Shown here one piece after another: positions 1,774 through 64,000 of a stretch of DNA of 64,000 nt (its first letter is position 1; each line of letters opens with the position of its first letter). The DNA comes from Squalus acanthias (taxonomy: Eukaryota), in contig CM059431.1 of NCBI GenBank assembly GCA_030390025.1, forward strand, positions 124,622,001 to 124,686,000, in the 5' to 3' direction. The translations under genes and the position numbers were made by a program. The notes under the pieces are model-generated. The model was not told the DNA's origin. It worked only from the letters and a program-made list of their open reading frames with translations, and searched no databases.

Positions 1774-3464
1774 TGTAAGGGTTTTGTCTCTCAGCCTGTG
1801 AGATTCGCGTGGCTCTGTGCAGCCCGGGTGCTAGTGCGGGTTTAGGCCTTGTTGCCTGTTCTGGTCTCCAGCCAGTCTGGGAGCACTAGACACACCTGTG
1901 AGTGGTTCGACCCACTCGCCCTTACGGTTCTAGACACTGGACTTAGATGCGAGAGCAGTAATGGAGATGAAACTCAGGTAGACTCGGTTGAATGGTACGA
2001 AATGGAAAATCTTTATTGCATAGTACTTAAGATTACGAAATACATGTCATACGCACAGATTAATGACAGTACAATCTTACACGCAGTTATGTAATTAATT
2101 TCAGGGAAACGAGGAACGAACGACACATCGTAAATGGGGACACACATTACAATTATCCTTAATACTTGAAACCCTCCCCTATCAATATCTGTCCTAAGCT
2201 AGATTCGTAGGATTCGAGACTCATGCTCACCACTCGTGATAACTCGGAGAATTCCGAAAACTCTGATCGGATGTTTTTCACCGCAGCGCCCACGTGTCGA
2301 TCAGGGAGTCTCCTGGCCCCACTTGTTTACTCGTTTCTGCTCCGGCTAGCAGGCTGGAACGTCTGCTGTCATGAAGATCTGTGTTGTCCTCGGAGTTCCG
2401 ACTCTACTCAAAAAAGAGTCTTCCTGTGCCCTCGCACTGATGCGATAAAATTCGAAGAAGAGTCTTCCTGTGTCAGTTCTGTAGAACTCAAAGAAGTCTT
2501 CCTGGCAAGGAAAATGTCTATTCGACCTTCAGGCGCGGTCGGGGCTTACTGACCGTGGCGATAAGTATGGTCTTCTTCTCTTCTCATCTCATCTCATCTC
2601 ATCTCATCTCATCTCGGGCCTTCGGTTCCAACACCGTTTACCGACTTATCGGAATGGTGCGCCCGCTTCAAGGCTTCAGAGCCCAGTTCTACACAGGTCT
2701 TCGCGACACGACACGAGGTAGATTCGAGCGGATCGTAAAGTTCAACAGTCTTTTGAAAAGAGACAAGAGGCAAGCAGGAACAAGACGGCGAGTCAAGAGC
2801 AGCCACGAGGATAAACACCAGCAAGATAAGAGAAAGATGGACGGTTGGAGCTTGTAATTATAGTGCAAAATCTTCCGTTTCCCGCCCAACCTTAATGTCT
2901 TCTCTTTTGTTAGGGTTTGGCGCTCAAATGTCTTGTATAGGGTGATCTTCGTTTTAATGGGTTTCGGGGCTACTCGTAAACGTCTGAGTACCTGTTAATA
3001 TTTCTCCCATTGTTTAATCGGTCGGTGTTCTCCCCGGAGGGGTTTTGGGGCTTCCAAGTGTTTTCTGTAACTACCCGCTAACGGCTCTCTCATCGTAGAG
3101 TCGTTGGGATTTTACATATTAATGTCTTTGGATGGGTTCTTGATTACTTGGTACAATAGCTTTTATTCGTACCTGGGAGACCGATTTCAGTATTTATGTG
3201 TATACTGTAAACCCATGATGTCTCGTGTATTATCTTAAATGTGCTGAGTCTTAATCGATCTTGCACAAATGTTTACTGGAACGCCATCTTGTCTGCCTGT
3301 CGAAAAGTCTAGAATGTTCTGCCACGAGGTGCGGCGGCCATTTTACAAGCTGCTTGTGTCCACTTTGAAAACCTGACAGCATTCCGCTGAAATAAAAGCT
3401 GTTTGAACGAAACTATGTGTTTTTCTCCTTATTAATAAAATCGCGATATATTGCGAATTCTACA
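1774..3464 (-). repeat. 3' LTR (1691 bp)
   Basis: TGTAAGG...TCTACA; near-identical to 9516-11206; minus-strand AATAAA at 2012-2017; internal (TCATC)n tract at about 2584-2614. Confidence 0.97.
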
Positions 3465-3476
3465 GTCCCTCCTGTT
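3465..3476 (-). promoter_or_regulatory. Polypurine tract
   Basis: Minus strand reads AACAGGAGGGAC immediately before the TGTAG start of the 3' LTR. Confidence 0.8.
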
Positions 3477-3911: not shown

Positions 3912-6263
3912 TCACACGGTGCTTTCGTCGTGCACGCGCACGTAACGTTCTCGCCACTCTCCCGTGTTTTCATGCTTGGTGAGGCGTTTGCCTCTTTTAC
4001 AATGTATGATCAATAGGTACACTACAATAAAAACTTGGCATACAACCAAAATGTGGGAGGCTATTCTGATCCATGAAGGTACTTCAATATTGGTGAACAG
4101 ATTCCACCACGGTGGAATTACTATATCCAGAATGTCTGTTCCTATTTCGACAGTTTTCTGTTCTAATGTGTAAAAATGTTTCTGTGACACCGCGACGGCT
4201 TTTAAAAGCTTGGTGAGGTGTTCAGGGAGAGGGGGAATGAGGTATCCGAAATGCGCGACGAATCGCTGCAAGTCGGTGAAATTCTCTTTTACTGTTAGAT
4301 GAACAGGGGATGGTTCAGGGATTGGGACAATTCGCTGTTGTGCTACTTGAACTTCCGCCCTGGGTTTGAAACAGAAACTGCTGTCACTCACCGGACACCG
4401 GCTACGGTTTCCATGCTGGTAGTGTTGCGCTGCAGTGGTAACACAATATGTTCCACCCCCGATGTATGCTACCTGCGGAGGCACATGATCTTGTGCCATT
4501 GCCTCCATGGTGCAATTCATGGACTTGGCGCCAGCCGTTCTGAACCCGCACTGTGGTGTTAAAAAGGCATTCAAGTGCTGGGGACACAGTATTATGTGTG
4601 CTCCCCTGCCACGACAACCAGAGAGATCTGTACCTGTCATCGTTTGCTCCCAGCGGAATGACGTAAGGTGGAACCGCTGCATAGCGAATGTGGGGTCCCC
4701 CCTGAATGACACCAATGTTCTCTACCCGATACACCGGGGCGGGCTTTGCTGTGTCGCCCAAAACCGGCATACGTAATACTATACCCATGATGGTATGGTT
4801 TGATCGTCCACAGTCCACGGGGACTGGGTATGCTTCTGAAGCTAGCCTGAGCTGGCACGGGCTTAATGCGTTCTGAAAAGGGTGGAGCGCCCGCAGGTGT
4901 TTGTTACTTATCCAGGACGGGACCAAACCTTGTTTTAAATCCTCCAAATTACTGCGGCCCTCGCCCAGTAACCACGCCCCGTAAAGCACGCACACCTCAT
5001 TCTGCGCAGCTTGATCGGATGCATTCCGATCTTCCCTAATCAGGGCATTTACCATCTTTGCATGTTTCTCCAACTCTGCTATAATTTCTTTTAAATGGAG
5101 AGTCATGGCTTGGTCCTCGTGTAAACCCGACCCAACCACTTTATTTTCATCTGTTAGAATGTCTTTTAATTGTGTCTTTAAACCATTAATCTGGGTCTGC
5201 AGCTCCACACTGTCTAGAGCGTTGACCACAGATGTACCCGTGTTAAAACCAGTGAACACGTCGTTCACTACACCCCTTCTTTGCCTCCCTACTTGATCCA
5301 AAACTTCATGTGGTGCGGTGTACAAACTTGTTTTATCAATTTCCGCGAAATCGAATTCGTAAAATTGTCTGAACATCTTGGTCAACAGGACCTGATATAA
5401 CTGTTCCGTCTTTTTGGGGCACCACTCTGGTAACCGCACCTCGGTGAGATTTAAAATCACCGAGGCCACCGCGTAATGTACCCCCTGAAATAGTATCTGG
5501 TCTGTGGGGACCAGTACCAAACCATTCCCGGGTCCCTTACTAGTTTTAGGGCACCCTTCCTCTTCAGCTAGAACCACCGGAATCGTGGGCGGGGCTTTGC
5601 GTGGGCGCGTAATGAGCTCAGTGGCATTTACCGGGATCGAAGAGTATGGGGCTCCGCACCCCCTGGTGCTCGCATCCCACCTCTTCCCCTGTCCGTTATC
5701 CTGCCATTGATTAATGAAAAATATGGAGATGCCTTTGGGGCAAGCGTACTTGGACCCCCACATGCATACATAAATTCCCTCATCCGGTTCCCACCATTTG
5801 TCCCAACAGACTCTCACTTGTCCGTTTGTCCCCGTAATTGTCCGATGGGTATTATTACCCAGTCGCTCCCACTCGACCGAAGAGTTCCTCATGTTTTTGC
5901 TCAGCTTTCGCAGCCACCACCATCGGCTCAATGGGACATTCCCACTACAAGTCAAACAAATCCGTTTGCCGACGGTGACGCTGATCCTAGGTGCGATGAT
6001 CCTTACTTTGGGGCACATTAAAGAAGTCTCTTGGTAGGCAACCCCGATGTGCTAGAATACTCCGTTGAGTTTGTTCCCAGCCATCCTGGCCACCTTCCCT
6101 TGTGGAAATAGGTGGTGGTCTCCTCAGCCTCCCGTCTTCCGGTCCCATGCACCGCGATGGGGGCCGTGTCCCCGGAGCATCCAAATACCACGACATCCTT
6201 GGTGCGGCCTCGATAGGCCAATCCACATCCGATTGCCGCGAGCAATACTAGAATTCGTTCCAT
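3912..6263 (-). pseudogene. env: env: signal peptide, Ig-like domain, F-type class I fusion protein, TM; about 780 aa when two frameshifts (about 6050 and about 4655) are repaired
   Basis: Signal peptide MERILVLLAAIGCGLA (ATG 6263); Ig motif LTC..W..DEGIYVC; RQRR furin site (5275-5286) followed by GVVNDVFTGFNTGTSVVNA and a heptad repeat; Cys-rich region; TM ILVVCQVFIVVYLLII; short tail. Built from ORFs 6018-6380, 4402-6018 and 3912-4715. Confidence 0.85.
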
Positions 6264-6554
6264 CCTTCCTTGGTTCCTGTGATCATATAGAATGAGGTAG
6301 CCAGCCTCGCAAGAGTCTCTGGCTTTTGTGAGGGGTGAGCGGGTCCCCTGACCTCGCCTCACGTAAACTTCAATGTTCACTGAATAAACTTTAACTAGAC
6401 CTATCCAAAACTCCCATCATTTTATCATTTTCTGTTAAAATTAAACTACAAACTTAACCTTATTTAAAACTATGAACTTATTACCTTAAACTTATAAACT
6501 TACAAACTTAAACTTATTACTGTACAGCGCCGCCCGTTCCCAGGGCGGCCCCTT

Positions 6555-7702
6555 TTAAATTCTGAGAAGGCTGCTGCGAGCTCTTCCCGACGGTGGGAGG
6601 GCACTGACCCCTTCCTTTGATCTGCCGCAGCCTGTTGCTGCTGCGATGGGACCGGGCCCTACCTGGGCTGCCTTAACCTTAAGCCTGCGCCTTGGGGCAG
6701 TCTGGGGACATGACCACATTTTCCTGGGCTGGGGTGCTCGACCTGACCTACGAGGAGTTGTCGGGGGCAGGAATCCCAGGACCGACGGACCGGGTTCCGA
6801 GACTTCCACCGGGACGACCTGTGGTCCCACCACAGTCGCTGGCTCCGCCCCCCCTGACTCCGCCTCCCTGACCTCGGGACTTGCAGCTTGTGGCACCGCC
6901 CTGCTCGGCCCAGCAGGCGGCCCTTCACTCGCAATCCCTACCTCCCCCGAGGGCAGGACGTTCAAGGTGGGCGGCTCGGGCTCTGAGGTTTTCACCGTCA
7001 CGCCCTGTGGTCTCACAGTGGCTGGCTCCGCCTCCCCTAGCTCCTCCCTCCTGTGTTCGGACCTGCAGGCTCGGTGTCCACCCTGTGTGGATCTCTATCT
7101 GCAGCCCCTGTCCTCCCTATACCTGAATCGGGGGCGACCCTTGCGTTCCCCGATTCCCACTCGTCCTCATCACTATCCTCATCTGACTCGAGTTCCAGGA
7201 ACTCTCCCTCATCTGACTCCCAACCCCACAAAAATGTTTCACAATTTTCCAGGATGTCTCCTCCCCTGATGCAAGCTGCTTTGCCTGCCTGTGTGCCTTG
7301 TGGTCCTACCTGGGGCTGCGAGTCCCCACTCGCAGGTCTGGCCCCTCCCCTAAGACAGGCCACCGCCCCTGCTTGTTTCTGTGAAATCTCACCTGCTGGA
7401 GGCTGCAGATTTCTATCCTGTTTTAAATCCTCATACTCCCTGCTCCTGGCTACCCTGTAGGCTGCTTTTATCTCTCTAAGCTGCCCTTCTAGCCTGAGCA
7501 CGTCTAACTTTCCCATTAAGCGGGCGTTCTCCTCCCGCAGGGCCTGCTCTCTAAGCTGCCCTTCCAGCCCATCTATTTTCCCTATTAAGCGGGCGTTCTC
7601 CTCCCGCAAGGCCTGCTCTTTTAACCTGGCCTCCTCACAGGAGACGCCCTCCTGTGCGTGTCTTTTAAAAGGACACAGGTAGGCAGGCTGCGTGGGCTCT
7701 AG
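6555..7702 (-). CDS. ORF2 in the pol position: coiled coil, acidic tract, Pro-rich repeats, RRSGR tail; in frame with gag; probable frameshift at about 7045
   Basis: Frame is open from the codon after the gag TGA (7702) through ORF 7037-7609 and probably joins ORF 6555-7016. No DTG/DSG protease, YxDD RT or HHCC/DDE integrase motif seen. Confidence 0.6.
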
Positions 7703-9511
7703 TCATTGGGTACTATTGGACGGGCCTGTGGCACCTACGGGGCCGGTAGCAACCGCCACTTTTCCATGCGCACTCATGAAGTTGCGCATGGCTCCCAACA
7801 CTGTTTCGAGGTCGTCGGGAGGGGTGGGTGCACTAGCTTCCCTAACAGAGACAGGCATCTGGGCTTGGGCTGCGGGATTTTTATCCCTGGAATCCTTCCA
7901 AGGGTTCCCGCAGTTCTTGCGCCAGTGCCCTGTCCTCCCACACCCGTAACAAGCATTACTTGCCTGCGGGGCGCGGTTACCCTCCTGATGCCACTCCTTT
8001 TGATCCGGGGCTGCGGGTCGTACCTCATGTACTTTTCCCTTAAGGGGACGTGTTCCCATACCCCTTATATTGCGATATCCTACCGTAAGTCGATTTAAGA
8101 CCGACTCTTCCGTAATGTTGGGGTCAGTGGGATCAAACCACGCTTTTGCCTGCTCTCTGACGGCTGGCAAACTGTTGGCTACTATACACCTGAGCCAATG
8201 AGTTAAACCGACGCCGTCCACAGCGTCGCGCTCTGGCGCACCTGGACAGCTGCGTTGATATACTGGCCACAGCCTGTCGGCAAAAACCTTCGGGGGTTCT
8301 CCCTCCATCTGCACTGTCTGTCCCAGTCTAGCAAACGGACCTTCATCGTCCGTCCCCAACACTTCTAGGACCTCATTTTTTAATGCCTCATATGTCTTGG
8401 TTCCCCTCTTGCTCTCGTCCGAGAGACACTGAAGGATTGAACTGCCTAACGAAAATAACAGCATTTTTGCTGTTTCCCCATCATCGCAGCCGTTAATGGC
8501 TGCGGTTTGCTCAACTTCTCTGAAGTGTACGGAAGGGTCGTCTGACTCGGTCAGCTTCCGTACGTGATTTATCATAACTCTCAGCTGGTGTGAGCTGTGA
8601 GGCAACACAAGCTGGTTGAGGAGAACCCCTGGTTCCTCCCCACCGTTTCTGTTTGGGCCCCTTTTTATACCCGTAACTGGACACAACGGTCCCTTTTCCA
8701 CTTCTTCCTCAGTGGGCTCTTTTGTTTCTTCTACTACTTCCTCCCTTACCCAGGTTTCCGACTAGCTGGGTGGCGCGGAGGGCGTAGTGGCTACTACTTC
8801 CTTTGCTTTACTTGGTGGGAATTTCTGAAACTCCTCATCTACTAGCGGCTGGTGTGCTGACGGACTGATAAGGCACACCATGCCGTGCGCTTTGTTCACG
8901 GCCCTTTTAAGGTGCACTATCTCCTTTTGGCAGGCGCTATGATTGGCCCCCTGGAATTTATCCTCAAGGGCCATCTTATATGCCGCCCTAACCCCCGTTA
9001 AGCTCTCTTCCTGGGCTCTTATTTGGGCAGCTTGGCGGGCACATCGTTCCTTTAGTCTGCCCTCACTTAACTTTGCCTCAGTGACCTGGCACTCGAGGTA
9101 ATCTATTTTTGCTTTGTGGTGACTGGTGATTTCCTGGCGTTCTCGGTGCAGCGCACTTAAATTCCTAATGAGCAACTCCCCTCCAGAGACCTTCTCATCC
9201 ATTTCCTCCTCTAAATGCCTGATCCGAGCTGTTTGCGCTGTAATGACCTGGTTTGAAATCTGGACCTGCCTTTTGTAACACATTAACCAGACTGCTTTCT
9301 CGACTGTCTTTTTATGTTCCTTACTATCTGTCCACCTCTCGGCTGCCTCTAGTGGACACTTATCCGCTAACAAGTCACTTATCCATTTTTTTGTTAAATT
9401 TACCTTTCCGAACACATAATCTGCGATCTTTTCCTGCATAACATTTCGTACATTCACACCAAAGTCTAACACACTACCCTCTCGCTGCCAGTGTCCTGCC
9501 GCGCTCGCCAT
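7703..9511 (-). CDS. gag: gag (602 codons) with one internal in-frame TAG at 8762-8764
   Basis: ORFs 8762-9511 and 7703-8701 share a frame and are separated only by one TAG. N-terminal coiled coil, PSAP (8771-8782), MHR-like QMEGEPPKVFADRL, zinc knuckle CYGCGRTGHWRKNC (7910-7951). Confidence 0.9.
9493..9510 (-). promoter_or_regulatory. Primer binding site, tRNA-Arg(TCG)-like
   Basis: TGGCGAGCGCGGCAGGAC, 5 nt after the 5' LTR; 17/18 match to the complement of the vertebrate tRNA-Arg(TCG) 3' end as I recall it (GTCCTGCCGCGGTCG+CCA). Confidence 0.85.
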
Positions 9512-9515
9512 CTTC

Positions 9516-11206
9516 TGTGAGGGTTTTGTCTCTCAGCCTGTGAGATTCGCGTGGCTCTGTGCAGCCCGGGTGCTAGTGCGGGTTTAGGCCTTGTTGCCTG
9601 TTCTGGTCTCCAGCCAGTCTGGGAGCACTAGACACACCTGTGAGTGGTTCGACCCACTCGCCCTTACGGTTCTAGACACTGGACTTAGATGCGAGAGCAG
9701 TAATGGAGATGAAACTCAGGTAGACTCGGTTGAATGGTACGAAATGGAAAATCTTTATTGCATAGTACTTAAGATTACGAAATACATGTCATACGCACAG
9801 ATTAATGACAGTACAATCTTACACGCAGTTATGTAATTAATTTCAGGGAAACGAGGAACGAACGACACATCGTAAATGGGGACACACATTACAATTATCC
9901 TTAATACTTGAAACCCTCCCCTATCAATATCTGTCCTAAGCTAGATTCGTAGGATTCGAGACTCATGCTCACCACTCGTGATAACTCGGAGAATTCCGAA
10001 AACTCTGATCGGATGTTTTTCACTGCAGCGCCCACGTGTCGATCAGGGAGTCTCCTGGCCCCACTTGTTTACTCGTTTCTGCTCCGGCTAGCAGGCTGGA
10101 ACGTCTGCTGTCATGAAGATCTGTGTTGTCCTCGGAGTTCCGACTCTACTCAAAAAAGAGTCTTCCTGTGCCCTCGCACTGATGCGATAAAATTCGAAGA
10201 AGAGTCTTCCTGTGTCAGTTCTGTAGAACTCAAAGAAGTCTTCCTGGCAAGGAAAATGTCTATTCGACCTTCAGGCGCGGTCGGGGCTTACTGACCGTGG
10301 CGATAAGTATGGTCTTCTTCTCTTCTCATCTCATCTCATCTCATCTCATCTCATCTCGGGCCTTCGGTTCCAACACCGTTTACCGACTTATCGGAATGGT
10401 GCGCCCGCTTCAAGGCTTCAGAGCCCAGTTCTACACAGGTCTTCGCGACACGACACGAGGTAGATTCGAGCGGATCGTAAAGTTCAACAGTCTTTTGAAA
10501 AGAGACACGAGGCAAGCAGGAACAAGACGGCGAGTCAAGAGCAGCCACGAGGATAAACACCAGCAAGATAAGAGAAAGATGGACGGTTGGAGCTTGTAAT
10601 TATAGTGCAAAATCTTCCGTTTCCCGCCCAACCTTAATGTCTTCTCTTTTGTTAGGGTTTGGCGCTCAAATGTCTTGTATAGGGTGATCTTCGTTTTAAT
10701 GGGTTTCGGGGCTACTCGTAAACGTCTGAGTACCTGTTAATATTTCTCCCATTGTTTAATCGGTCGGTGTTCTCCCCGGAGGGGTTTTGGGGCTTCCAAG
10801 TGTTTTCTGTAACTACCCGCTAACGGCTCTCTCATCGTAGAGTCGTTGGGATTTTACATATTAATGTCTTTGGATGGGTTCTTGATTACTTGGTACAATA
10901 GCTTTTATTCGTACCTGGGAGACCGATTTCAGTATTTATGTGTATACTGTAAACCCATGATGTCTCGTGTATTATCTTAAATGTGCTGAGTCTTAATTGA
11001 TCTTGCACAAATGTTTACTGGAACGCCATCTTGTCTGCCTGTCGAAAAGTCTAGAATGTTCTGCCACGAGGTGCGGCGGCCATTTTACAAGCTGCTTGTG
11101 TCCACTTTGAAAACCTGACAGCATTCCGCTGAAATAAAAGCTGTTTGAACGAAACTATGTGTTTTTCTCCTTATTAATAAAATTGCGATATATTGCGAAT
11201 TCTACA
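9516..11206 (-). repeat. 5' LTR (1691 bp)
   Basis: TGTGAGG...TCTACA; about 5 substitutions versus 1774-3464 found by eye; adjoins the PBS. Confidence 0.97.
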
Positions 11207-13002
11207 GGGGTACCGTTAAGTCTCACCATTCACTGCAACTCACTAAGCCACTTCCAAAGGCTCACACAATTCTGTCTAAGAACGCAAAGTGTTGAAAATA
11301 AAGGTTTCAATGTTTAACAACACATTAACAGAAACTTTACATGAACATTGCATAAAACACCCAAGTGCCTTCCCTTGTGTGTTGTTAGTTTGTATGACTG
11401 GACTAAGATGAGGGTGAGTGTGAGCTGTGGTTAGTGAGATGAGGAAGTGATAATGTAGGTAGAGAGGGATGGGTGGAGTTGCAAGGTAAGTTGGTGTGAG
11501 TAAGGATGTGCAGGAGTAGGGTAGGGAAGGCAGAGTGATGAGGATGTGATGAGAGACACAGCAGGATGAGGTTGAATGGTGGGGTCGCGACACCGCTGCT
11601 GGCTCCATCCCGCTTTTGAAAATGGGGCCTAATAAGCCCGCCCAGCGCGTTACCCGGTCCAATTATATGGTGTGGGTCTGGTGATGTCACTCATGATGCC
11701 AGGATCTTTAAATGGTCCATGGCTACATTAGATTTGAAGTTTAATCTCGCAGAGTGCAGTCAGTGCATTAGAGTGCTGCAAACACTGACAATGACTGCAC
11801 AGAAGCAGAGGGCTGCACCCAGGTTCTCTGCTGACTCCCTGCATATGGAGAGAGTCAGAGCACGCAGGGAGGTCCTCTCCCCTTCCGATGGGTGGAAAAG
11901 ACCTCCCCAGGAGACCAAAACAGATTGGTTGCAGATTGCAGAGGAGGTCACAAGCAGGAATGTGGTCAGGAGGACCTGGGTGCAGTGCCACAAATGCTTC
12001 AATGATCACATTAGATCAGGAAACAATAGTACAAAGCCACAGTCAACCTCATCCTGCTGTGCCTCTCATCACATCCCCATCACTCTGCCTTTCCTACCTT
12101 ACTCCTGCACATCCTTACACACACCAACTTACCTTGCACCTCCATCCATCGCTCTCTATCTACATTATCACATCCCTATCTCACTAGCCACCCTTCACAC
12201 TCACCTTCATCCTAGTCCAATCATACCAACTAACAACACAAAAGGGTAGCCACTTGGGTGTTTTATCCAATGTTTATGAAAAGTTTCTGTTAATGTGCTG
12301 TCAAACATAAAAAATCTTTATTTCCAACACTTTGCGTTCTTGGACAGATTTGTGTGCACCTTTGCAAGTTGCTTAGTGAGTTGCACTGAATGGCGAGATA
12401 TAATGATACCCCCCGCAATGGTGATGAGTGTGAAATGAATGGCTTGGTCATTGTAGGGATGCTTTATGGTGTTGGTGTGGGGTGGTATCAATCTGGCACA
12501 TCATGTGGCATTCATATGGGTGCACAGCTTAAAGTTACTAAATCTGGCCATGATGATGCCATCACTGGCCTCCCAGGCAGCAATGTGCTTGGGTGCTGAT
12601 GCCCTCTGTCTTGTGCAGCATTGGGTAATTGCAGAGAAGGTTGGTGTTGTTGGTGCTGCTGGTGTGCCTGGTGCTGCTGGTGTTGAAGCTCATCATAGTC
12701 CGATTCTGAGGACCAAGGTGAGGCAATATAAAGGGCACCCATGTTGATGGAATAGATGACATGATGTGGAGATGGAATAGATGGCAGACGAAGTACAGAT
12801 GATAGAACCATTCTGTCAATGGTGAGAGAGTTCTTCCAATGAGGTGACACTAGATGGAGACTTTGCTGGAAACACATGCAGCCTGCAGAATCTCTGCTGG
12901 AAATGGATTGATCAACAACTTCTGCCTGAGGAAAGTGATCATCTGTCAGGTGGGAGCTTTCACTGAACATTTGATGCTGTCAAGTAATCAGTTGGAGGAA
13001 TG

Positions 13003-19180: not shown

Positions 19181-21721
19181 TGTAAGGGGTTGCGTGTTGT
19201 GCTTGTATCGCAGACGGTGCTGGTGCGGGGTTAGGCCTTCGTTGCCCAATACTATTGCTTGCTCTGGTCTCCGGCCAGCCTTGTTGCAATAAGCACCTGT
19301 GAGTGGTTCGACCCACTCGCCCTTACCGTTCTAACACTGGACTTAGGTGCGAGAGCAGTAATGCAGAGAAAAACTCAAATAGACCTGGTTGAATCGTACG
19401 GAATGGAAATCTTTATTGCATAGCGTCTAAAATCATGAAGTACATGTCATAGGCACAAATTAACAATAGTACAAGTATACATACATTCATAAAGCTTGGT
19501 CTATGGTAATGAAGAACGCACGGCACATCGTAAAAAGGGGAACACATTATACTTTATCCTTAATAAAACCACCCTCCCCTATCAATACCTACACTACATC
19601 TAGATTTGTAGGATCGTGAAACATGCTCACCACTCGTGATACTTCGGAGAATTTTAAAATGAGGCACTCGGCTCGTTTCGCTGCAGCGCCTGACTGTCAC
19701 GTGTTTGAAGGGGTCTCTGTACCCCACTTGTTTACTTTCGCTGCTGCTGCAAGCAGGCTGGGCTCCCCGTTGTCATGAAGAACTCGACAGTGCTCGGGCC
19801 CGACTGTAGAACTCAAAGAAAAGTCTTCCTGGACCGACACCAGTTACCGGTAGAATTCAAAGAAGAGTCTTCTTGTATCGACACCGGTTGTCGATAGAAT
19901 TCGAAGAAGAGTCTTTCACTGGTTCGTGCAGCAACCTATAGAGTTCAAAAATGGTCTATATATTTTCGGGCGTGGTCGGGGTTTACTGACCGCGGCGGCA
20001 CGTGGACTCTTCTTCTTCTCTTCTCATCTTGTCTTGTCTTTTCGGGCCTTCGGGACACTCAGGATAGTGCACGCGGTTACGCGCCCTCCGTTGAGGCGGC
20101 TCGTCCCGATTGAGCTCCACCCAACATTAGTTGACAGAGTCCAGAGAAAACACAGAAGGCTGCTCGTCCAGCAGAGCGATACCCGAGGATAAGGATAGGA
20201 GAGATAAGAGAGCGATGGACATTTGTTCACTATAGTTATAGGGAGAAAAAATCCGTTGTTTGCGCCTTCCGTTAGTGCCTTAAGAGGGCGCTAATGGGGC
20301 GCAAAGCAGCTAGCGCCCGGGCGTGGCGAAGTTTGCGCCGCTTGCGAAATTAACTAGACATTTTGCGGCGGCGCTAAACACTACCGCCACGATCTCCTGC
20401 GCCGGCAGATCATGACGTCACTCGATTGTGCAACGCCCCGGTATCGCCCCGGAGCGGATATTGAGTGGCGCCCCCTGCCTTACCACCTGACGCTAGCAAC
20501 GACAGGTTGAGGGGAGCGTTCTGCAGTCATGAAGGGAAAGGGGGAGCGCTATTTAAAGGTGACCGCTTCCTGCCTTTTATTGTTGGTGCCATTTTTGAAC
20601 TACGCATTCTGAGAGAGAGAGGGAGAGACTTCTGGAGAGATTCAACGTTGTGTGAAGGAGTTTTGGGTACTGAGCAGCACTTTGCAGGTTCATTTTGATT
20701 TTCCATTCCTTGTATTGATTTAGCAGAGACTTTGGGGGCTGCACTCTGAGCTCTTTGCCTGGTACTCTCCATTGTTCTTTCCAGCACATTTGATGTGCAA
20801 GTCTCTCCAGGCCGAGATTCAAGGCTGCAATGAGTAGGATGTGGATGGAAAGCAAGATTAACCATCCCCTTTAAGAACTGGCCCGTGCCATTGTGTGTGT
20901 GTTCCATTGCTGACTGACATTACATGAGCTTCGCCAACGCTCTGAGTTAGCGCCTCACTCCTCGGCCTTTGCACCTTAAGACAGGTGTGCAGCGCCTGAT
21001 TTAGCGCTCCACTCATCCCGGGGCGTTAAAAGTGAAGTTTCCAGTCAGTGGCGATAATTAGTGCCAGGCGCTAATTTTTGCGCCCGGACGATATTTGCGC
21101 CCCAAACGGGGCACGACTGAATTTTTCCCCCATAGTGCTGTGTTTTCTTATCTCCCGCCCAAATCTTAATGTTTGTCCTTTGTGAAATATTGGCGCTCAA
21201 AACTCCCAGCATGGGGTGATTCCTGTCTTTAACGGGTTTCGGTAGCACCTGAGACTGGACAACTACCCGTTAATGTTTTCCCCATTGTTGAACCAGCTAG
21301 GAGCCTCCCTGGCTGGGTTTTGGGGATCCCGAATACTTGTTTAAACACCCGAGAATGGCTCTCTCCTTGTAGAGCCGTGGGGGTATTTGCGTATTGATGT
21401 GTCTGGATGGGCCTTCGATTGCCCAGTACAATGGTCCTTACTTGTGCATGGAAAACGATTCCAGCACTCATATCTTTTGCTATTGTCACAAATGCAAAAC
21501 AGGTTGCATCCTGTCTTTATCAGTGCTTATCGAAAATGTTTATTCGAACGCCATCTTGTCTGCCCACTGTGCTTCTGGAAACTTCTGCCACGATGCGCGG
21601 TGGCCATTTTACAGGCTTCTGTGTCTTGTTTAATCATGACAGCATTTCGTTTAAATAAACTGATCAAACGAATCTGCTTCTATCTCGTTATTTCGAATCG
21701 CGATAATTGAGAAACTTTACA
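19181..21721 (-). mobile_element. Solo LTR of the F-env LTR group (subfamily 2), interrupted by a MITE
   Basis: TGTAAGG...TTTACA; TSD CATT (empty site visible in the sister MITE at about 20915); homologous to 1774-3464 and closer to the revcomp of 61780-63518. Confidence 0.92.
20241..21131 (+). mobile_element. Harbinger-type MITE (family A) inside the solo LTR
   Basis: GGGAGAAAAA...TTTTTCCCCC; TSD ATA; empty site visible in the LTR at about 62383-62400. Confidence 0.9.
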
Positions 21722-26700: not shown

Positions 26701-27744
26701 TTTGAGTGTGCGCTTGCAAGCTTCTTGCCTCAACTGAAATCAATAACAATGGGATGGAAACCACTTACATCCTCTCATCCTGGTCGCCAGATTCGGAGGA
26801 AGAGCAGCACGGCTTAGTGCTGCCAGATGAACAAGTGACTCAGCACACAGCCTCCTTGGAGGAAGATGAAGAGGACTATGAAGAGGATGAGGAAGAGGAT
26901 GAGGAGGAGGAAGTGGAGGAGGACGGGGAGTGACGCCTTGCGGGGTCGGATCTGGCCAATCCAGCAGAAGACGACCGCATTGCTGGCCGTCAGGCAAGGG
27001 ATGTACTCATCCATGCCAGATTCACGTCACCTTATGCTTCAACCGCAGGTGGCTGGCACATGGAGATGAATATAAGTCCAACATTCTCAAAACCCCAGGT
27101 ATCCTCTGTCCAATAAATGGTGGTTTGCGCTCAGTGTCACCACCAACATTCTACATGGAAATCACCCTGAGCCCTCACTCTTCAACTTCCATTTCCCAGA
27201 ACACAGAGGCCACACTTTAGGTGATCTCAGCAGATCGTTAAACCTTTTTCCACACTGAACCCATGTGAATCTGCACACAGACCTCGAGCTCACCAACTCA
27301 GCAATTTGCAGCCAAGCTGCCTTGGTTTGCTGAGGAGGCCTCCTCCTTCCATTTCCAGGAAAGAGGAGCTCCTGACTTCCTCTAACTCCCTCAACAAGAG
27401 CATGGAGAGAGCCCTCATTGAACCTGGGTGCATCCTTAGTTATTGGGCTGCCGTTCCTGCAGCAGCCAGCAACTTTAAGAGAAAAAAGCATTAATATCAC
27501 TAAGCCAATGATTGGAACAAATCTGGCATCTTTTTCATTTCATAGTCAGATAATAAATTGATATTTAAAAAAGTCATAAAATTCTTTCTGTGATAATATG
27601 ACCAGCAATTTCATTCATTAAATTTTGTTTAGAACAGACGCTGTCAGCTCCTCTTTCTATATCTTGCAGCATAAAACCATCACATTGACATTTTCCCCAA
27701 AGGGGACATGGCCCCTTTAAATTCTCATCCAAACAACACATCAT

Positions 27745-41511: not shown

Positions 41512-43313
41512 GGGCTGGATTTTCCCTGCGGTGGCGGGATGGCAGCGGGAGAGCTGGATAGCAGGTTCCGGTCCCACTCCCGTCTGCAGTCAACCTCGCA
41601 AAATGATTTTCCATAGATTGGCCCTGTTAAGCCCGCCCTGCAGGCTTCCTGGCCAATTACCAGGAAGTGGGTCTGATGACGTCATTTGATGATGCATCAT
41701 CAGCTGGTTTCCTTAAAGGGACCATGGCCATATTCATTTTGACAGTTGTGCTGTCAGTGTTCTGCAGCATTGAGGTGCTGCAAACACTGACAAGCACTGC
41801 ACAGAGGTGCACGTCTTCACCCAGGCTCTCCCATGACTCACTCCATATGCTTATGGAGGGAGTCACAGCACGCAGGGAGATTCTCTTCCCTTCCAATGGA
41901 CGGAAGAGACCTCCCCACGAGATCAACGCAGTCTGGTTGCACATTGCACAGCAGGACACAAGCAGGGATGTCGTCAGGAGGACCTGGCTGCAGTGGCGCA
42001 GGCCTTTCAATAATCTCAGTAGACCACGAAACAGTTACTGCAAAGCCACACTCAAGCTCACCCTGCTGTGCCACTCATCGCATCCCCATCACTTTGCCTT
42101 CCCTACCCAACTCCTGCACATCTTTACACCAACTTACCTTGCACCTCCACCCATCCCTCTCTATCTACATTATCACTTCCCCATCTCACTAGCCACCCCT
42201 CACACTCATCCTCATCCTACTGCAAGCATATCAACTAACAACACACAAGGGTAGGCACTTGAGCGGTTTAGCCAATGTTCATGTGAAGTTTCTGGTAATG
42301 TGTTGTTATACAGTGAAATCTGTATTGTCAACACCTCATCTTATTGGACAGATCTGTGTGCACCTTGAGAAGTGTCTTACTGAGTTCCACTGAATGTTGA
42401 GACATAACTCTTCCCCCCCACCCCGCACCCCCCCTCCCCCGCCGCTATAATGATGAGTGCAAATGGAATGGCTAGGACATTAAAGGGATGCTTTACGGTG
42501 CTGGTGTGGGATTGTGTCAACCTGGTGGATAATGTCGCAGCCAGGGTTTACAGTGTCAAGTGAAGTAAATCTGGCCATGGTGATGCCATCGCTGGCCTCC
42601 CGGGCAGCAATGTTGTCAGGGGCTGATGTCCTGTGCATCATCAGGTGATGGTGGAGAAGTTTGGTGATGTTGTTGGTGATGTTGGTGTGCCTGGTGATGT
42701 TGGTGTTGCGGCTGATCGTGGAAGGATTCAGATACCAAGGTGTGATTTTTCCAAGGGCACCGATGTTGCTGCATTAGATGGCAGCTGCAGGTGAGATGAC
42801 AGAAGCGATCTGTCAATGGTGAGAGAGGTTGTTCCAATGAGGTGGCACTGATTATACAGTTGGTTCTAAATACTTGCAAGCTAAAGAAATCTCCATAAGT
42901 CTTACAAATGCAGTCAGCAACAGTTTCTGCATTCTGAAATTGAACAGCTGCAACATGGCATCCTTTACACCACTTCTGTAGCTGTCAGCTTATCAGATAC
43001 ATCAAAGCAGACTCAACTCATGACAGGGTGAGCTATCATGTTCCCCGAGCAGTGGGTAACCCGTGGGGGAGCACATAAAATTGCAAGATGGCCTCAAAAT
43101 AGCATTAAATTGGCTCTTAAAAGCCATTTAATGATCTAAATTGTCTCCCCCGCCGCTAGGTGTCAGGTCACTTCTGCGCGGACAGACCCGACACCCGGGA
43201 GACTCGTGTGGAGGTGGGTTGACAGCAGGTTTCCCACCCGCTGTCAATCTTTGCTATTTTGACAGCGGACCCGCCTCCAAACCCGCCCTCTGAGCGCCTG
43301 CAAAATCCAGCCC
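41512..43313 (+). mobile_element. Non-autonomous Harbinger (1.8 kb) with Myb remnant, inside CR1 ORF2
   Basis: TIRs GGGCTGGATTTT / AAAATCCAGCCC; TSD TTT; ORF 41667-42254 is Myb-like. Confidence 0.88.
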
Positions 43314-53209: not shown

Positions 53210-54436
53210 CTAAGCGAATCTGTCAATGATTAGTGCATCTCTTGCATCCCGGGCAGCAATGTGCTCGCGTGCTGCTGGAACTAGGGCATCCGCCTCTGCA
53301 AGGTCTTCCTCTCCTCCTCCTCCTCCTCCTCATCTGAAGAGGCTATGCGCTGAGCCACTTGTTCCTCAGGCAGCTGCAAGCCATGATGCTGTGCAATGTT
53401 GTGCAGTGCACAGCAGATCACGATGATTCTGGAGACCCTGGCTGCTGAGTACTGCAGGGCTCCACCTGTTCTGTCAAGGCATCTGAATTGCATCTTCAGC
53501 AAGCCGATGGTTTGCTCGATGATGGATCTGGTTGAAATGTGGCTGGCATTGTAGCACTCCTCAGCTTCGTTCGATGGCCTCCTCAACGGCATCATCGGCC
53601 ATTTCTTCAGGGGATAGTCCTTGTCTCCAAGTAGCCATCCGGAAGGTTGTGTTGGTGGATTGAAGAGTGGAGGCACACTAGATTGCCGCAGGATGAACGA
53701 GTCATGACAACTGCCAGGGTACTTTGCGCAAACATGCATAATGTTCTTCCTGTGGTTACACACCAGTTGCACGTTAAGGGTGTGGAAGCCCTTGTGGTTG
53801 ACAAAAACAGCTGGTTTGTGATGGGGTGCCTTAAGGGCCACATGTGTGCAGTCTACGACGTCCTGCACCCTTGGCAAGCCTGCCATATTTGCAAAGGCAA
53901 CCGCACGCGAGGTTACATTTGCTTCATCCGTGGAGAAGTGTATGTAATTGTGCGCCTTTGCAAAGAGGGCATCGGCTACCTGCGTGATCCAAGTGTGTGC
54001 GGCCGACTGGGAGATGCCGCTGATGTCTACTGATGAGCCCTGGAAGGACCCTGAAGCAAAAAAATTGAGGGCAGTGGTGACTTTGACAGCCACTGGTAAG
54101 GAGTGTCCACCCGCTCCTCTGGGCTCCAGGTGTTGGTGCAGCATTGCGCAGATGTCACCAGACTACCTCTCGCGAAAGTCTTAGCCTCCTTTGGCACTGC
54201 TGCTCAGTCATGTTGAGGAAGGTCATCCTCGGCCTGTAAACCCTGTGTTGGGGGTATCTCCCATGGCGAGGTGCAGCCCTGCGCTGATGCCTTCTGCCCT
54301 GTGCACCATCAGGTAGCTGAGCAGGAGGTTGGCGCTCCTGCTGTTGGTGCTGCTGTTGTGCCTGGCTCTGCTGCTGCCGCGGCTGCTCTTCTTCCGAATC
54401 TGAGGACCAGGATGAAAGGAAATAAATGGTTCCCAT
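53210..54436 (-). pseudogene. Harbinger (HARBI1-like) DDE transposase, frameshifted at about 54158 and about 53310
   Basis: [54 protein letters not shown] motifs. Confidence 0.93.
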
Positions 54437-61779: not shown

Positions 61780-63518
61780 TGTAAAGTTTCGCAATTATCG
61801 CGATTCAAAACAACAAGATAGAAGCAGATTCGTTTGATCAGTTTATTTAAACAAAATGCTGTCATGATTAAAAAGGACACAGAAGCCTGTAAAATGGCCG
61901 CCGCGCATCGTGGCAGAAGCTTCCAGAATTACAGTGGGCAGACAAGATGGCGTTCGAATAAACATTTCAATATAAGATGGGATCATACTCGATAAACACT
62001 GATAAAGACAGGATGCAACCTGTTTGCATTTGTGACAATAGCAAAAGATATGAGTGCTGGAATCGTTTTCCATGCACAAGTAAGGACCATTGTACTGGGC
62101 AATCGAAGGCCCATCCAGACACATCAATACACAAATACCCCCACGGCTCTACAATGAGAGAGACATCGACGGGTGATTAAGCAAGCATTCGGGGGCCCCC
62201 AAAACCCAGCCAGGGGAGGCTCCTAGCCGGTTCAACAATAGGGAAAACATTAACGGGTAGTTGGCCAGTTTCAGGTGCTACCGAAACCCGTTAAGGAAAG
62301 AATCGCCCCATGCTGGGAGTTTTGAGTGCCAATATTATACAAAGGACAAACATTAAGATTTGGGTGGGAGATAAGGGAACACAGCACTATAACTATAGTG
62401 AACAAATGTCCATCGCTCTTATTCTCTTATCTCGCTGCTGACTGCTGAGGGTTTATTCTCTTATTCCCTTGATTCGACTCCTGACACGCTCGATCGCGGG
62501 CTGAAGCTCTTCTCTAGGGCTGGACTCTGTTGACTCTGGACTTTTAGCCGTACTGGACGGTTATTTGAATGTTAGGTGGAGCTCAATCGGAATGAGCCGC
62601 CTCGACAAGGGCAAGTGACCGGGTGCACCATCCCGAGAGTCGGTAAACGGTGTCTGGACCCGAAGGCCCAACAAGACAAGACGAAATGACAAGAAAAGAA
62701 GAATCCACGTGCCGCCGCGGTCAGTAAACCCCGACCGCGCCCGAAAATATAGGACCCACTTCTTGAATTCTACAGGTTATTGCACGAACCGGTTTTTGGG
62801 TCCATCGAACTCCTCACAACAACAAGAAAGACTCTTCTTTGAATTCTACCGACAACTGGTGTCGGTACAGGAAGACTTTTCTTTGAGTTCTACAGCCGGG
62901 CCCGAGTTCTGTCGAGTTCTTCATGACAACGGGGAGCCCGGCCTGCTTGCCGCAGCAGCGAAGATAAACAAGTGGGGCACAGAGACCCCTCCAAACACGT
63001 GACAGTCAGGCGCTGCAGCGAAACGAGCCGAGTGCCTGACTTTAAAATTCTCTGAAGTATCACGAGTGGTGAGCATGTTTCCCGATCCTACAAATCTAGA
63101 TGTAGTGTAGGTATTGATAGGGGAGGGTGGTTTTATTAAGGATAAAGTATAATATGTTCCCCTTTTTACGATGTGCCGTGCGTTCTTCATTACCATAGAC
63201 CAAGCTTTATGAATGTATGTATACTTGTACTCTCGTTAATTTGCACCTATGACATGTACTTCATGATTTTGGAAGCTATGCAATAAAGATTTCCATTTCG
63301 TACTATTCAACCGGGTCTATTTGAGTTTTTCTCTGCATTACTGCTCTCGCACGTAAGTCCAGTGTTAGAACCGTAAGGGCGAGGGGGTCGAACCACTCAC
63401 AGGTGCTTATTGCAGCAAGGCTGGCCGGAGACCAGAGCAAGCAATAGCATTAGACAACGAAGGCCCAACCTCGCACCAGCACCGTCTGTGATACAAGCAC
63501 GCCAAAAAAACCCTGACA
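61780..63518 (+). repeat. 5' LTR (1739 bp) of a second provirus of the same group, inserted in an L2 fragment
   Basis: TGTAAAG...CCTGACA; revcomp homologue of 19181-21721; AATAAA at 63282; followed by PBS and gag. Predicted TSD CATC. Confidence 0.92.
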
Positions 63519-63522
63519 GAAA

Positions 63523-64000
63523 ATGGCGACCGCGGCAGGACATTGGCAGCGAGAGAGTAATGTTTTAGACCCTGGTGCGAATAGGCGAAATGTGATGGAT
63601 GAGAGGGTAGCCGACTATGTGTTTGGGAAGGTTAACTTAACCAAAAGGTGGATAAGTGACCTGCTGATGGATAAGCGTCCGCTAGACGCCGCTATCAAAT
63701 GGACAGGCAGTAAAGAGCATAAGAAGTCGGTAGAGAAAGCGGTCTGGCTGATGTGCTACAAGAAGCAAGTCCAACTTTCGGACCAGGTCACTGTGGCACA
63801 GGCAGCTCAGATCAGGGATTTGGAAGTTGAGATGGAGGAAAAGATCACGGGAGGACAGAAACTCATTGCATCATTGAATGCGTTACATCAGGAACGCCAG
63901 ATAGTAGCCAACCACCATGAGGCAAAAATTGATTACCTAGAGTGTCAGGTCACGGAAGCGAAATTAAACGAGGGTAAGATTAGAGAACGGTGTGCCTGCC
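63523..64000 (+). CDS. gag: gag N-terminus of the second provirus (open to the window end; not in the ORF track)
   Basis: Hand translation MATAAGHWQRESNVLDPGANRRNVMDERVADYVFGKVNLTKRWISDLL...KIDYLECQVTEAKL aligns without gaps to ORF 8762-9511. Confidence 0.92.
   Translation, partial: MATAAGHWQRESNVLDPGANRRNVMDERVADYVFGKVNLTKRWISDLLMDKRPLDAAIKWTGSKEHKKSVEKAVWLMCYKKQVQLSDQVTVAQAAQIRDLEVEMEEKITGGQKLIASLNALHQERQIVANHHEAKIDYLECQVTEAKLNEGKIRERCAC
63524..63541 (+). promoter_or_regulatory. PBS, tRNA-Arg(TCG)
   Basis: TGGCGACCGCGGCAGGAC, an 18/18 complement to the tRNA-Arg(TCG) 3' end as recalled; 5 nt from the LTR. Confidence 0.88.

Follow-up and report, generated by a model that had tools for sequence, protein, structure and literature searches.

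We analyzed a stretch of 64,000 nucleotides (nt) of the Squalus acanthias genome (NCBI GenBank assembly GCA_030390025.1, contig CM059431.1, positions 124,622,001 to 124,686,000; the window), in which an endogenous retrovirus (ERV) that lacks pol ends its gag gene in the stop context TGA-CTAG, with a further 221 codons open in the same frame behind the stop. The explanation that we favor, with a probability of roughly 0.6, is that this is a programmed readthrough site inherited from a gag-pol junction, from which intact copies of the element would make a few percent of a coiled-coil-extended Gag with a proline-rich tail. The context, the open frame, the conserved end of Gag, the Gag-like character of the second open reading frame (ORF2), the absence of pol, and the published stop contexts of lokiretroviruses carry this argument.

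The gag stop and the frame behind it

The features on which the argument rests are as follows.

8765..9511, minus strand: N-terminal part of gag, 249 codons, coiled coil; 55% identical over its full length to the skate Gag P0001
8762..8764, minus strand: in-frame TAG that breaks gag; context UAG-UCG, no known readthrough motif
7706..8761, minus strand: C-terminal part of gag, 352 codons, with capsid and one CCHC knuckle (about 7951-7910)
7699..7705, minus strand: TGA-CTAG, the gag stop in a type II readthrough context, read in the sequence
7652..7702, minus strand: stub of 17 codons, LEPTQPAYLCPFKRHAQ, either a pol start or a Gag motif
7603..7695, minus strand: candidate RNA stem starting 7 nt past the stop (5' arm ~7695-7671, 3' arm ~7634-7603), within the top 0.8% of 1954 positions as a duplex
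7037..7702, minus strand: ORF2, 221 codons, in frame with gag; tandem coiled-coil repeat
6555..7094, minus strand: ORF3, proline-rich, in a different frame from ORF2, whose end it overlaps

On the minus strand gag ends ACC CAA TGA CTA GAG CCC, the TGA at 7705-7703 and the CTAG at 7702-7699, and the frame behind it, which starts with LEPTQPAYLCPFKR, stays open for 221 codons until a TAG at 7039-7037. A first-pass annotation, made from the letters alone, had reported this stop and its open frame, and the sequence, the frame, and a shuffle test agree with it: 7702-7040 contains 13 and 15 stops in the remaining two sense frames, and dinucleotide shuffles (mean, 9 stops) were open across the frame in 0 of 5000 cases. 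TGA-CTAG makes up only 6 of the 2369 TGA triplets on both strands of the window (TGA-CTA, 27 of 2369), and the internal region of the element, with 79 TGA triplets on the sense strand, has it at the gag stop alone. The other five TGACTAG sites of the window have 4 to 19 open codons before them and 17 to 62 after, against 352 and 221 at the gag stop. None of the 40 listed of 599 read differences falls at 7699-7705, and a contig from another organism's sequencing run covers 7527-7737 with 6 differences and no gap.

Judged by protein alignment, the TGA at 7705-7703 is the conserved, true end of Gag. The Gag ends of P0001, P0004, P0005, P0006, and P0007, which are 36 to 55% identical to it, all fall within one alignment column of the stop, and the final residue is Gln, as here, in four of these five full-length relatives (P0015, P0018, and P0020, too distant and poorly aligned at the Gag end, were left out of the count). 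Because the Gag ends coincide, we reject a sequencing slip or a random nonsense mutation as the origin of the UGA. The identity of the protein is supported by a zf-CCHC match (Pfam, E 0.0057), by a capsid model that matches the C-terminal domain of the MLV capsid (Z 11.7; root mean square deviation, 2.5; 86 residues aligned; Ty3, Z 5.1) and also fish and toad retrovirus Gag in BFVD, and by named Gag homologues from skate, sharks, and Xenopus (11 of 24 matches looked up).

This copy cannot itself use the site. An in-frame TAG at 8764-8762, 249 codons past the gag ATG, was overlooked in the first-pass annotation; because of it, ribosomes that start at 9511 never arrive at the UGA here, and a Gag-ORF2 fusion could therefore be made only by other copies, not from this gag ATG. 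The place of the TAG is open in all six homologues that span it, which, as predicted proteins are open by construction, show only that open forms exist.

That UGA-CUA(G) promotes readthrough in alphaviruses and vertebrate genes, as the first-pass annotation also stated, is well established (PMC4132726). UGA-CUA alone yields 1.5% readthrough, genes with UGA-CUAG reach up to ~31%, and 12 bases past the stop are enough in mammalian cases (PMC4132726). Since UGA-CUA alone works in mammals, no RNA structure is required. The site differs from the gammaretrovirus arrangement of UAG, an 8-nt purine-rich spacer, and an H-type pseudoknot in that its stop is UGA; pseudoknots were not searched for.

Stop contexts at lokiretrovirus gag-pol junctions

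Pol-bearing lokiretroviruses of similar layout support an ancestral UGA readthrough at the gag-pol junction, as far as their consensus sequences allow it to be read. We located these junctions by term searches of the supplement of PMC7947760 (Dataset S1), with frames assigned by eye. Six of the seven separately annotated gag genes end in TGA-CTA-R just before the protease (TGA-CTA-G in Ofa, Pyo, and Sau; TGA-CTA-A in Bsp, Dcl, and Lro), and in Tfu, the seventh, TGN-CTA-A stands where Dcl and Lro have their junction. In Ofa, Pyo, Sau, Dcl, and Lro the annotated Pol lies in the continued frame, which in Bsp leads into the matching pre-protease segment. Cne, found via the motif, carries TGA-CTA-G in frame, and two of the nine one-frame gag-pol entries, the two that we examined, have a sense codon in place of the stop (CGA-CTA-A in Pfl, GGA-CTA-G in Str) where the protein pointed to the junction. 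CTA is present at 10 of the 10 junctions located among the 24 consensus sequences, which are related and do not amount to ten independent events. Only 4 of the 17 TGACTAG matches in the supplement lie at junctions; we left out of the count a match at the start of Lch, whose pol lies in another frame. The annotated Pol of Ofa, Cne, Pyo, Sau, and Dcl starts at TTG or CTG, well past TGA-CTA-R. The sense codons of Pfl and Str are like the opal-to-sense variants of alphaviruses, or else are a consensus artefact.

From these sequences, UGA-CUA-R readthrough looks like the Gag-Pol switch of lokiretroviruses. The first-pass annotation had proposed that the ancestral junction used UGA readthrough and that the stop now yields a Gag-ORF2 fusion; the lokiretrovirus junctions favor the first part, whereas the TAG in this copy's own gag tells against the second for this copy. 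Fish and frog retroviruses with UGA at the gag-pol boundary have been described before, and only the CUA-R context is new. Neither the excerpted text of PMC7947760 nor the Odin paper returned a match for readthrough or stop codons, and our text searches, which did not extend to subscription papers, Repbase reports, or bioRxiv supplements, turned up no paper that describes readthrough at UGA-CUA in either lokiretroviruses or fish ERVs. Likewise, we found no description of UGA-CUA-R in this branch of retroviruses or of its survival ahead of a Gag-derived frame.

Lokiretroviruses are the sister group of retroviruses, and their way of making Pol is not addressed in the literature searched. Readthrough at fish retrovirus junctions is said, of the epsilonretroviruses, to lack experimental verification (PMC13517186). 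The seven-base signal is known to work in vertebrate cells, so the proposal is directly testable. If it is true, this would be a third retroviral solution besides UAG plus a pseudoknot and frameshifting, the annotated lokiretrovirus Pol would start too late, its true start being the gag stop, and a parasite of a virus would have put a recoding switch to further use, in making a novel fusion protein. We advance only tentatively, and as somewhat doubtful, the wider proposal that lokiretroviruses and cartilaginous-fish retroviruses with F-type env share a conserved, hitherto overlooked Gag-Pol switch in UGA-CUA-R readthrough of the alphavirus type, and that the pol-less, high-copy family has kept it under selection for a small share of coiled-coil-extended Gag, which would help the family's own particles or RNA in competing for helper enzymes.

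The slot behind gag and its competing explanations

The gag stop lies within a long terminal repeat (LTR) element that runs on the minus strand from 11207 to 1774 of the window, with the following further parts.

9516..11207, minus strand: 5' LTR, 1692 bp, with TG...CA ends
9493..9510, minus strand: primer-binding site, overlapping the gag ATG (9511-9509)
3912..6263, minus strand: env, F-type fusion protein with an RQRR site, here in three frames (6263-6021, 6051-4405, and 4721-3915)
1774..3465, minus strand: 3' LTR, with a short purine tract ahead of it

The LTRs differ by 5 mismatches in 1692 bp (99.7% identity), and a 4-bp CCCC flanks the element on both outer sides. The primer-binding site resembles what we take to be the 3' end of tRNA-Arg(UCG). 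Only ~1.4 kb separates the gag stop from the start of env, and neither the open reading frames nor Pfam gave a match to protease, reverse transcriptase (RT), RNase H, or integrase in that interval; the RT domains elsewhere in the window sit in LINE-type frames outside the element. With paired LTRs, a target duplication, and a primer site, and without any of these four enzymes, the element is a non-autonomous ERV. Its LTR differences correspond to an age of about 0.7 to 7 million years under the two rates of PMC4422223. In each of the sequencing runs of four organisms, reads cover all 30 bins across 5900-9600, and the summed depth is so high as to argue for a many-copy family.

We do not read ORF2, in the slot behind gag, as a leftover of pol: it matches none of the four enzymes and is Gag-like instead. 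At the level of protein sequence, the bulk of ORF2 is a second, diverged version of the Gag coiled coil and pre-capsid linker, with which its residues ~42-191 (7579-7130) are colinear. These residues score 16.0 bits on a Gag profile built from seven relatives, compared with at most 9.1 for shuffles (2000 whole or block; 1784 scored), 0.8 for reversed ORF2, and no more than 0.1 for any of the 103 further non-Gag frames with at least 100 codons in the window; hhalign gives a probability of 62% (E 7.6e-5). Pairwise scores to Gag proteins are weaker, the best (P0006) being reached by 2 of 500 block shuffles and the others by 8 to 82 of 500. Alignment of ORF2 DNA to either gag of the window gave no signal (own gag score 22; shuffle mean 24), and the duplicate is therefore old or comes from a related lineage. 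Pfam returned a generic coiled coil only, and the best Atlas value, 0.85, is a lead only.

The 17-codon stub, which had been proposed as the surviving start of pol, is ambiguous. Its PAYLCPFK matches the block that opens the capsid and is probably a protease site (background, 1.4e-4 per position), and its AYLCPFKRHAQ matches the Gag VWLxCYKxQVQ block (background, 3.6e-4 per position), both comparisons having been picked after the sequence was seen. For LEPTQPAYLCPFKR, a pol start that resembles a protease site and a Gag motif are readings of about equal fit; the former would suit a surviving protease N terminus, and the latter would mean that the stub is derived from Gag. ORF3, in turn, is probably the continuation of ORF2, split in this copy by a frame break near 7058, because copies vary in length there. 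Its openness is weak (184 of 5000 shuffles), and 3 of 4 runs contain a 39-nt duplication within it. A stretch RRSGR-P-P in ORF3 is, we presume, reminiscent of integrase tails.

We therefore envisage the following course of events. TGA-CTAG at the end of Gag would have been inherited from a pol-bearing ancestor, in which it would have set the ratio of Gag to Gag-Pol. Pol would then have been lost, and its slot taken, in frame, by the diverged second Gag coiled coil and linker and then by the proline-rich tail. Where a copy has an unbroken gag, ribosomes may pass the UGA at a rate of a few percent and give Gag with an extra coiled-coil extension. As ORF2 has no ATG in its first 61 codons (the first in-frame ATG is at 7516), readthrough would be the only simple route to its expression. 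A cis-acting role for the fusion, by analogy to IAP 1-delta-1, is a guess.

Several observations weigh against this reading. No pol-bearing member of the family was found among viral contigs, metagenome contigs, and prokaryote genomes, and a search of 910 candidates at E 1 returned no homologue of ORF2. Kinship to the lokiretroviruses is unproven, given the CCHC knuckle, the Arg-type primer site, and a host group not listed for them. Although its LTRs are 99.7% identical, the copy carries breaks in gag, near 7058, and at two places in env. The internal repeats of ORF2 do speak for the reading, with 11 silent and 11 replacement differences in 41 codons, a larger silent share than the 1 in 4 or so expected without selection, but the repeat windows were picked by protein likeness, and this silent bias may predate the arrival of ORF2 in its present slot. 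The RNA evidence is divided as well. The candidate stem pairs with a probability of only ~0.11 in a wider context, its 3' arm lies within the Gag-like part, so that it was not simply inherited from pol, and the fold of the first 50 nt after the stop (z +0.3) is no better than that of shuffles. The downstream 150 nt, whose folding the first-pass annotation had suggested as a check, do reach z -3.3, but 9 of 38 windows across gag-ORF3 have z <= -2.5.

In favor of a stem, a long one can begin here 7 to 9 nt past the stop, as it does in alphaviruses (PMC3159437), the candidate ranks as a duplex in the top 0.6 to 1.1% of 1954 positions, or in the top 2.2% when only the 673 positions of the GC-rich part are counted, and 156 nt folded from the stop give z -2.8; we regard the candidate stem as suggestive only. 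The RNA of gag-ORF3 is highly structured overall, with its strongest window near 8986-8837 (z -5.8) and further strong local duplexes at 7649, 6974, 6854, and 6671 of the minus strand, several of them within ORF3 repeats.

Searches for a pol-bearing relative yielded little else. We found no Gag-Pol fusion of 1100 to 3140 residues, which is weak evidence, and no branch into pol at the junction in 9 joints and the 24 of 381 loose ends listed, which proves nothing; a 17-residue match in a bacterial bin from the prokaryote genome search was taken as chance. The four coding breaks in 5.6 kb (8764-8762, ~7058, ~6039, and ~4700), as against 5 LTR differences in 1692 bp, reflect either a defective template copied by helper proteins or, for some of them, assembly errors.

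The competitor that survives best, though we think it unlikely, keeps the inherited leaky stop and denies the fusion any function: a coding piece of gag would have landed in frame recently, its product would be a harmless by-product, and the region would be kept for RNA reasons or not at all. The derivation of ORF2 from Gag would explain part of its scarcity of stops, and its lack of homologues, a family that looks young and copied by helper proteins (LTRs at 99.7%, no pol), and a copy that spread or persisted despite several breaks are all in keeping with such an origin. Yet ORF2 is too diverged from its own gag for DNA alignment (22 against the shuffle mean of 24) while remaining fully open, its repeats have accumulated many silent changes, and the 39-nt duplication found among copies preserves the ORF3 frame.

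Less probable still is that ORF2 is expressed from a spliced RNA or an internal start, as the accessory genes of complex fish retroviruses are, with the UGA merely ending Gag. By eye, a pyrimidine-rich run at 7688-7667 precedes a CAG|G at 7652|7651, in phase 0 and ahead of the coiled coil, and three donor-like sites in gag (9406, 9250, and 9088) are in phase 0 too; SnRV also splices in a complex manner (PMC12193657), and the in-frame ATG at 7516 offers an internal start. An earlier AG at 7663-7662 and the T at -3 of that ATG argue against these routes, and splicing leaves unexplained both the CTAG behind the stop and the 17 open codons ahead of the acceptor. We give the least credence to coincidence, in which a chance motif arose at a recombination joint of the gag end with a second piece of gag and pol was made by frameshifting or splicing: the fit of the AYLCPFKRHAQ stub to the Gag VWLxCYKxQVQ block means that nothing behind the stop need be pol, but in this DNA CTAG follows a given TGA by chance in ~0.25% of cases, a figure to be multiplied by one third for the frame, and similar vertebrate elements share the context.

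The element, its surroundings, and known systems

The envelope protein looks like a relative of paramyxovirus and pneumovirus F. Its Atlas features reach 0.95 to Baculo_F/Gypsy env clusters and 0.94 to Fusion_gly clusters, a class assignment that comes from one source with a recognition value of 1862, below the 2300 mark, and that does not separate loki from errantivirus-type env. It has no Pfam match, and a structure model from the single sequence has a predicted local distance difference test score (pLDDT) of 34. The RQRR cleavage site is of the furin type, but is not the RXKR of lokiretroviruses, and other copies vary in length near 6039, at the env frame break. An Ig-like stretch occupies the front of env (6051-5550, minus strand; Pfam Ig_3, E 1.2 only).

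The LTRs are unusually long at 1.7 kb, each with a (GAGAT)n run (10351-10315 and 2609-2573, minus strand), and the gag ATG overlaps the primer-binding site five bases past the LTR (9511-9493, minus strand). A second, diverged member of the family enters the window at 61850-64000 (plus strand) and runs off its end; its LTR is ~74% and its Gag 72% identical, and one base among the first 18 of its primer site is different, which alters Gag residue 3. More diverged fragments of family LTRs (75 to 79% identity) lie at 19255-20029 and 21534-21713. The element is nested in a repeat (1423-1774 and 11207-12758) that has Myb/SANT-like frames at 11620-12246, to which copies at 27165-27539 and 41631-42251 are related; it also includes an inverted repeat (11207-11582/12037-12412). 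Given the DDE_Tnp_4 transposase at 53284-54162, the surrounding repeat is probably a DNA transposon of the Harbinger type.

Among known systems, the element shares with lokiretroviruses (Wang and Han, PMC7947760) the LTR-gag-(pol)-env layout of a fish element, an N-terminal Gag coiled coil, an MLV-like capsid, and an F-type env; the MLV-like capsid and SMC-like coiled coil are common to other retroviruses and so are not diagnostic. Several lokiretroviruses carry a short V-Y-L/F about 10 codons past TGA-CTA-R, where the element here has A-Y-L. Unlike them, it lacks pol, has one CCHC knuckle where Bik-1 Gag has a glycine-rich patch, and carries RQRR in env, and the published host list, in the part available, names no cartilaginous fish.

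The closest match to the signal itself is type II readthrough, in which the alphavirus nsP3-nsP4 junction and the vertebrate genes OPRL1, OPRK1, AQP4, and MAPK10 use the same seven bases (PMC4132726, PMC3159437). Alphaviruses also have a CGA sense variant at the stop, as does the lokiretrovirus consensus Pfl. In those type II systems readthrough was measured; here, in a retrovirus-like gag, we infer it.

UGA also divides gag from pol in one frame in SSSV, ZFERV, and RMEV (PMC13517186), all of which keep pol, unlike the element here, and a TGA stands between gag and pol in the frog XtERV-S (PMC8278194). The UGA junctions in the excerpts of the 2026 review PMC13517186 are UGAAGA, UGACGA, and UGAAGU, none of them UGACUA, and lokiretroviruses go unmentioned there.

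An arginine primer site is a feature that the element may share with SnRV. SnRV Gag likewise combines a coiled coil with a single zinc finger (PMC2717909), and SnRV-like ERVs are present in the elephant shark (PMC4422223). The SnRV junction, however, is UAGGGC (PMC13517186) rather than UGA-CUAG, we met no description of an F-type env for SnRV in the literature covered, and TGACTAG is absent from three elephant-shark ERV sequences in a text search in which line breaks can hide a match.

As a pol-less, helper-dependent, high-copy, non-autonomous ERV, the element most resembles IAP 1-delta-1 of mouse and BHIKHARI of zebrafish. Bik-2 retains gag only. In IAP 1-delta-1 a novel gag-pol fusion helps its own retrotransposition in cis (PMC6466679). 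Unlike both, the element here retains env, its fusion would be conditional on readthrough, and what is added to Gag would be a second Gag coiled coil.

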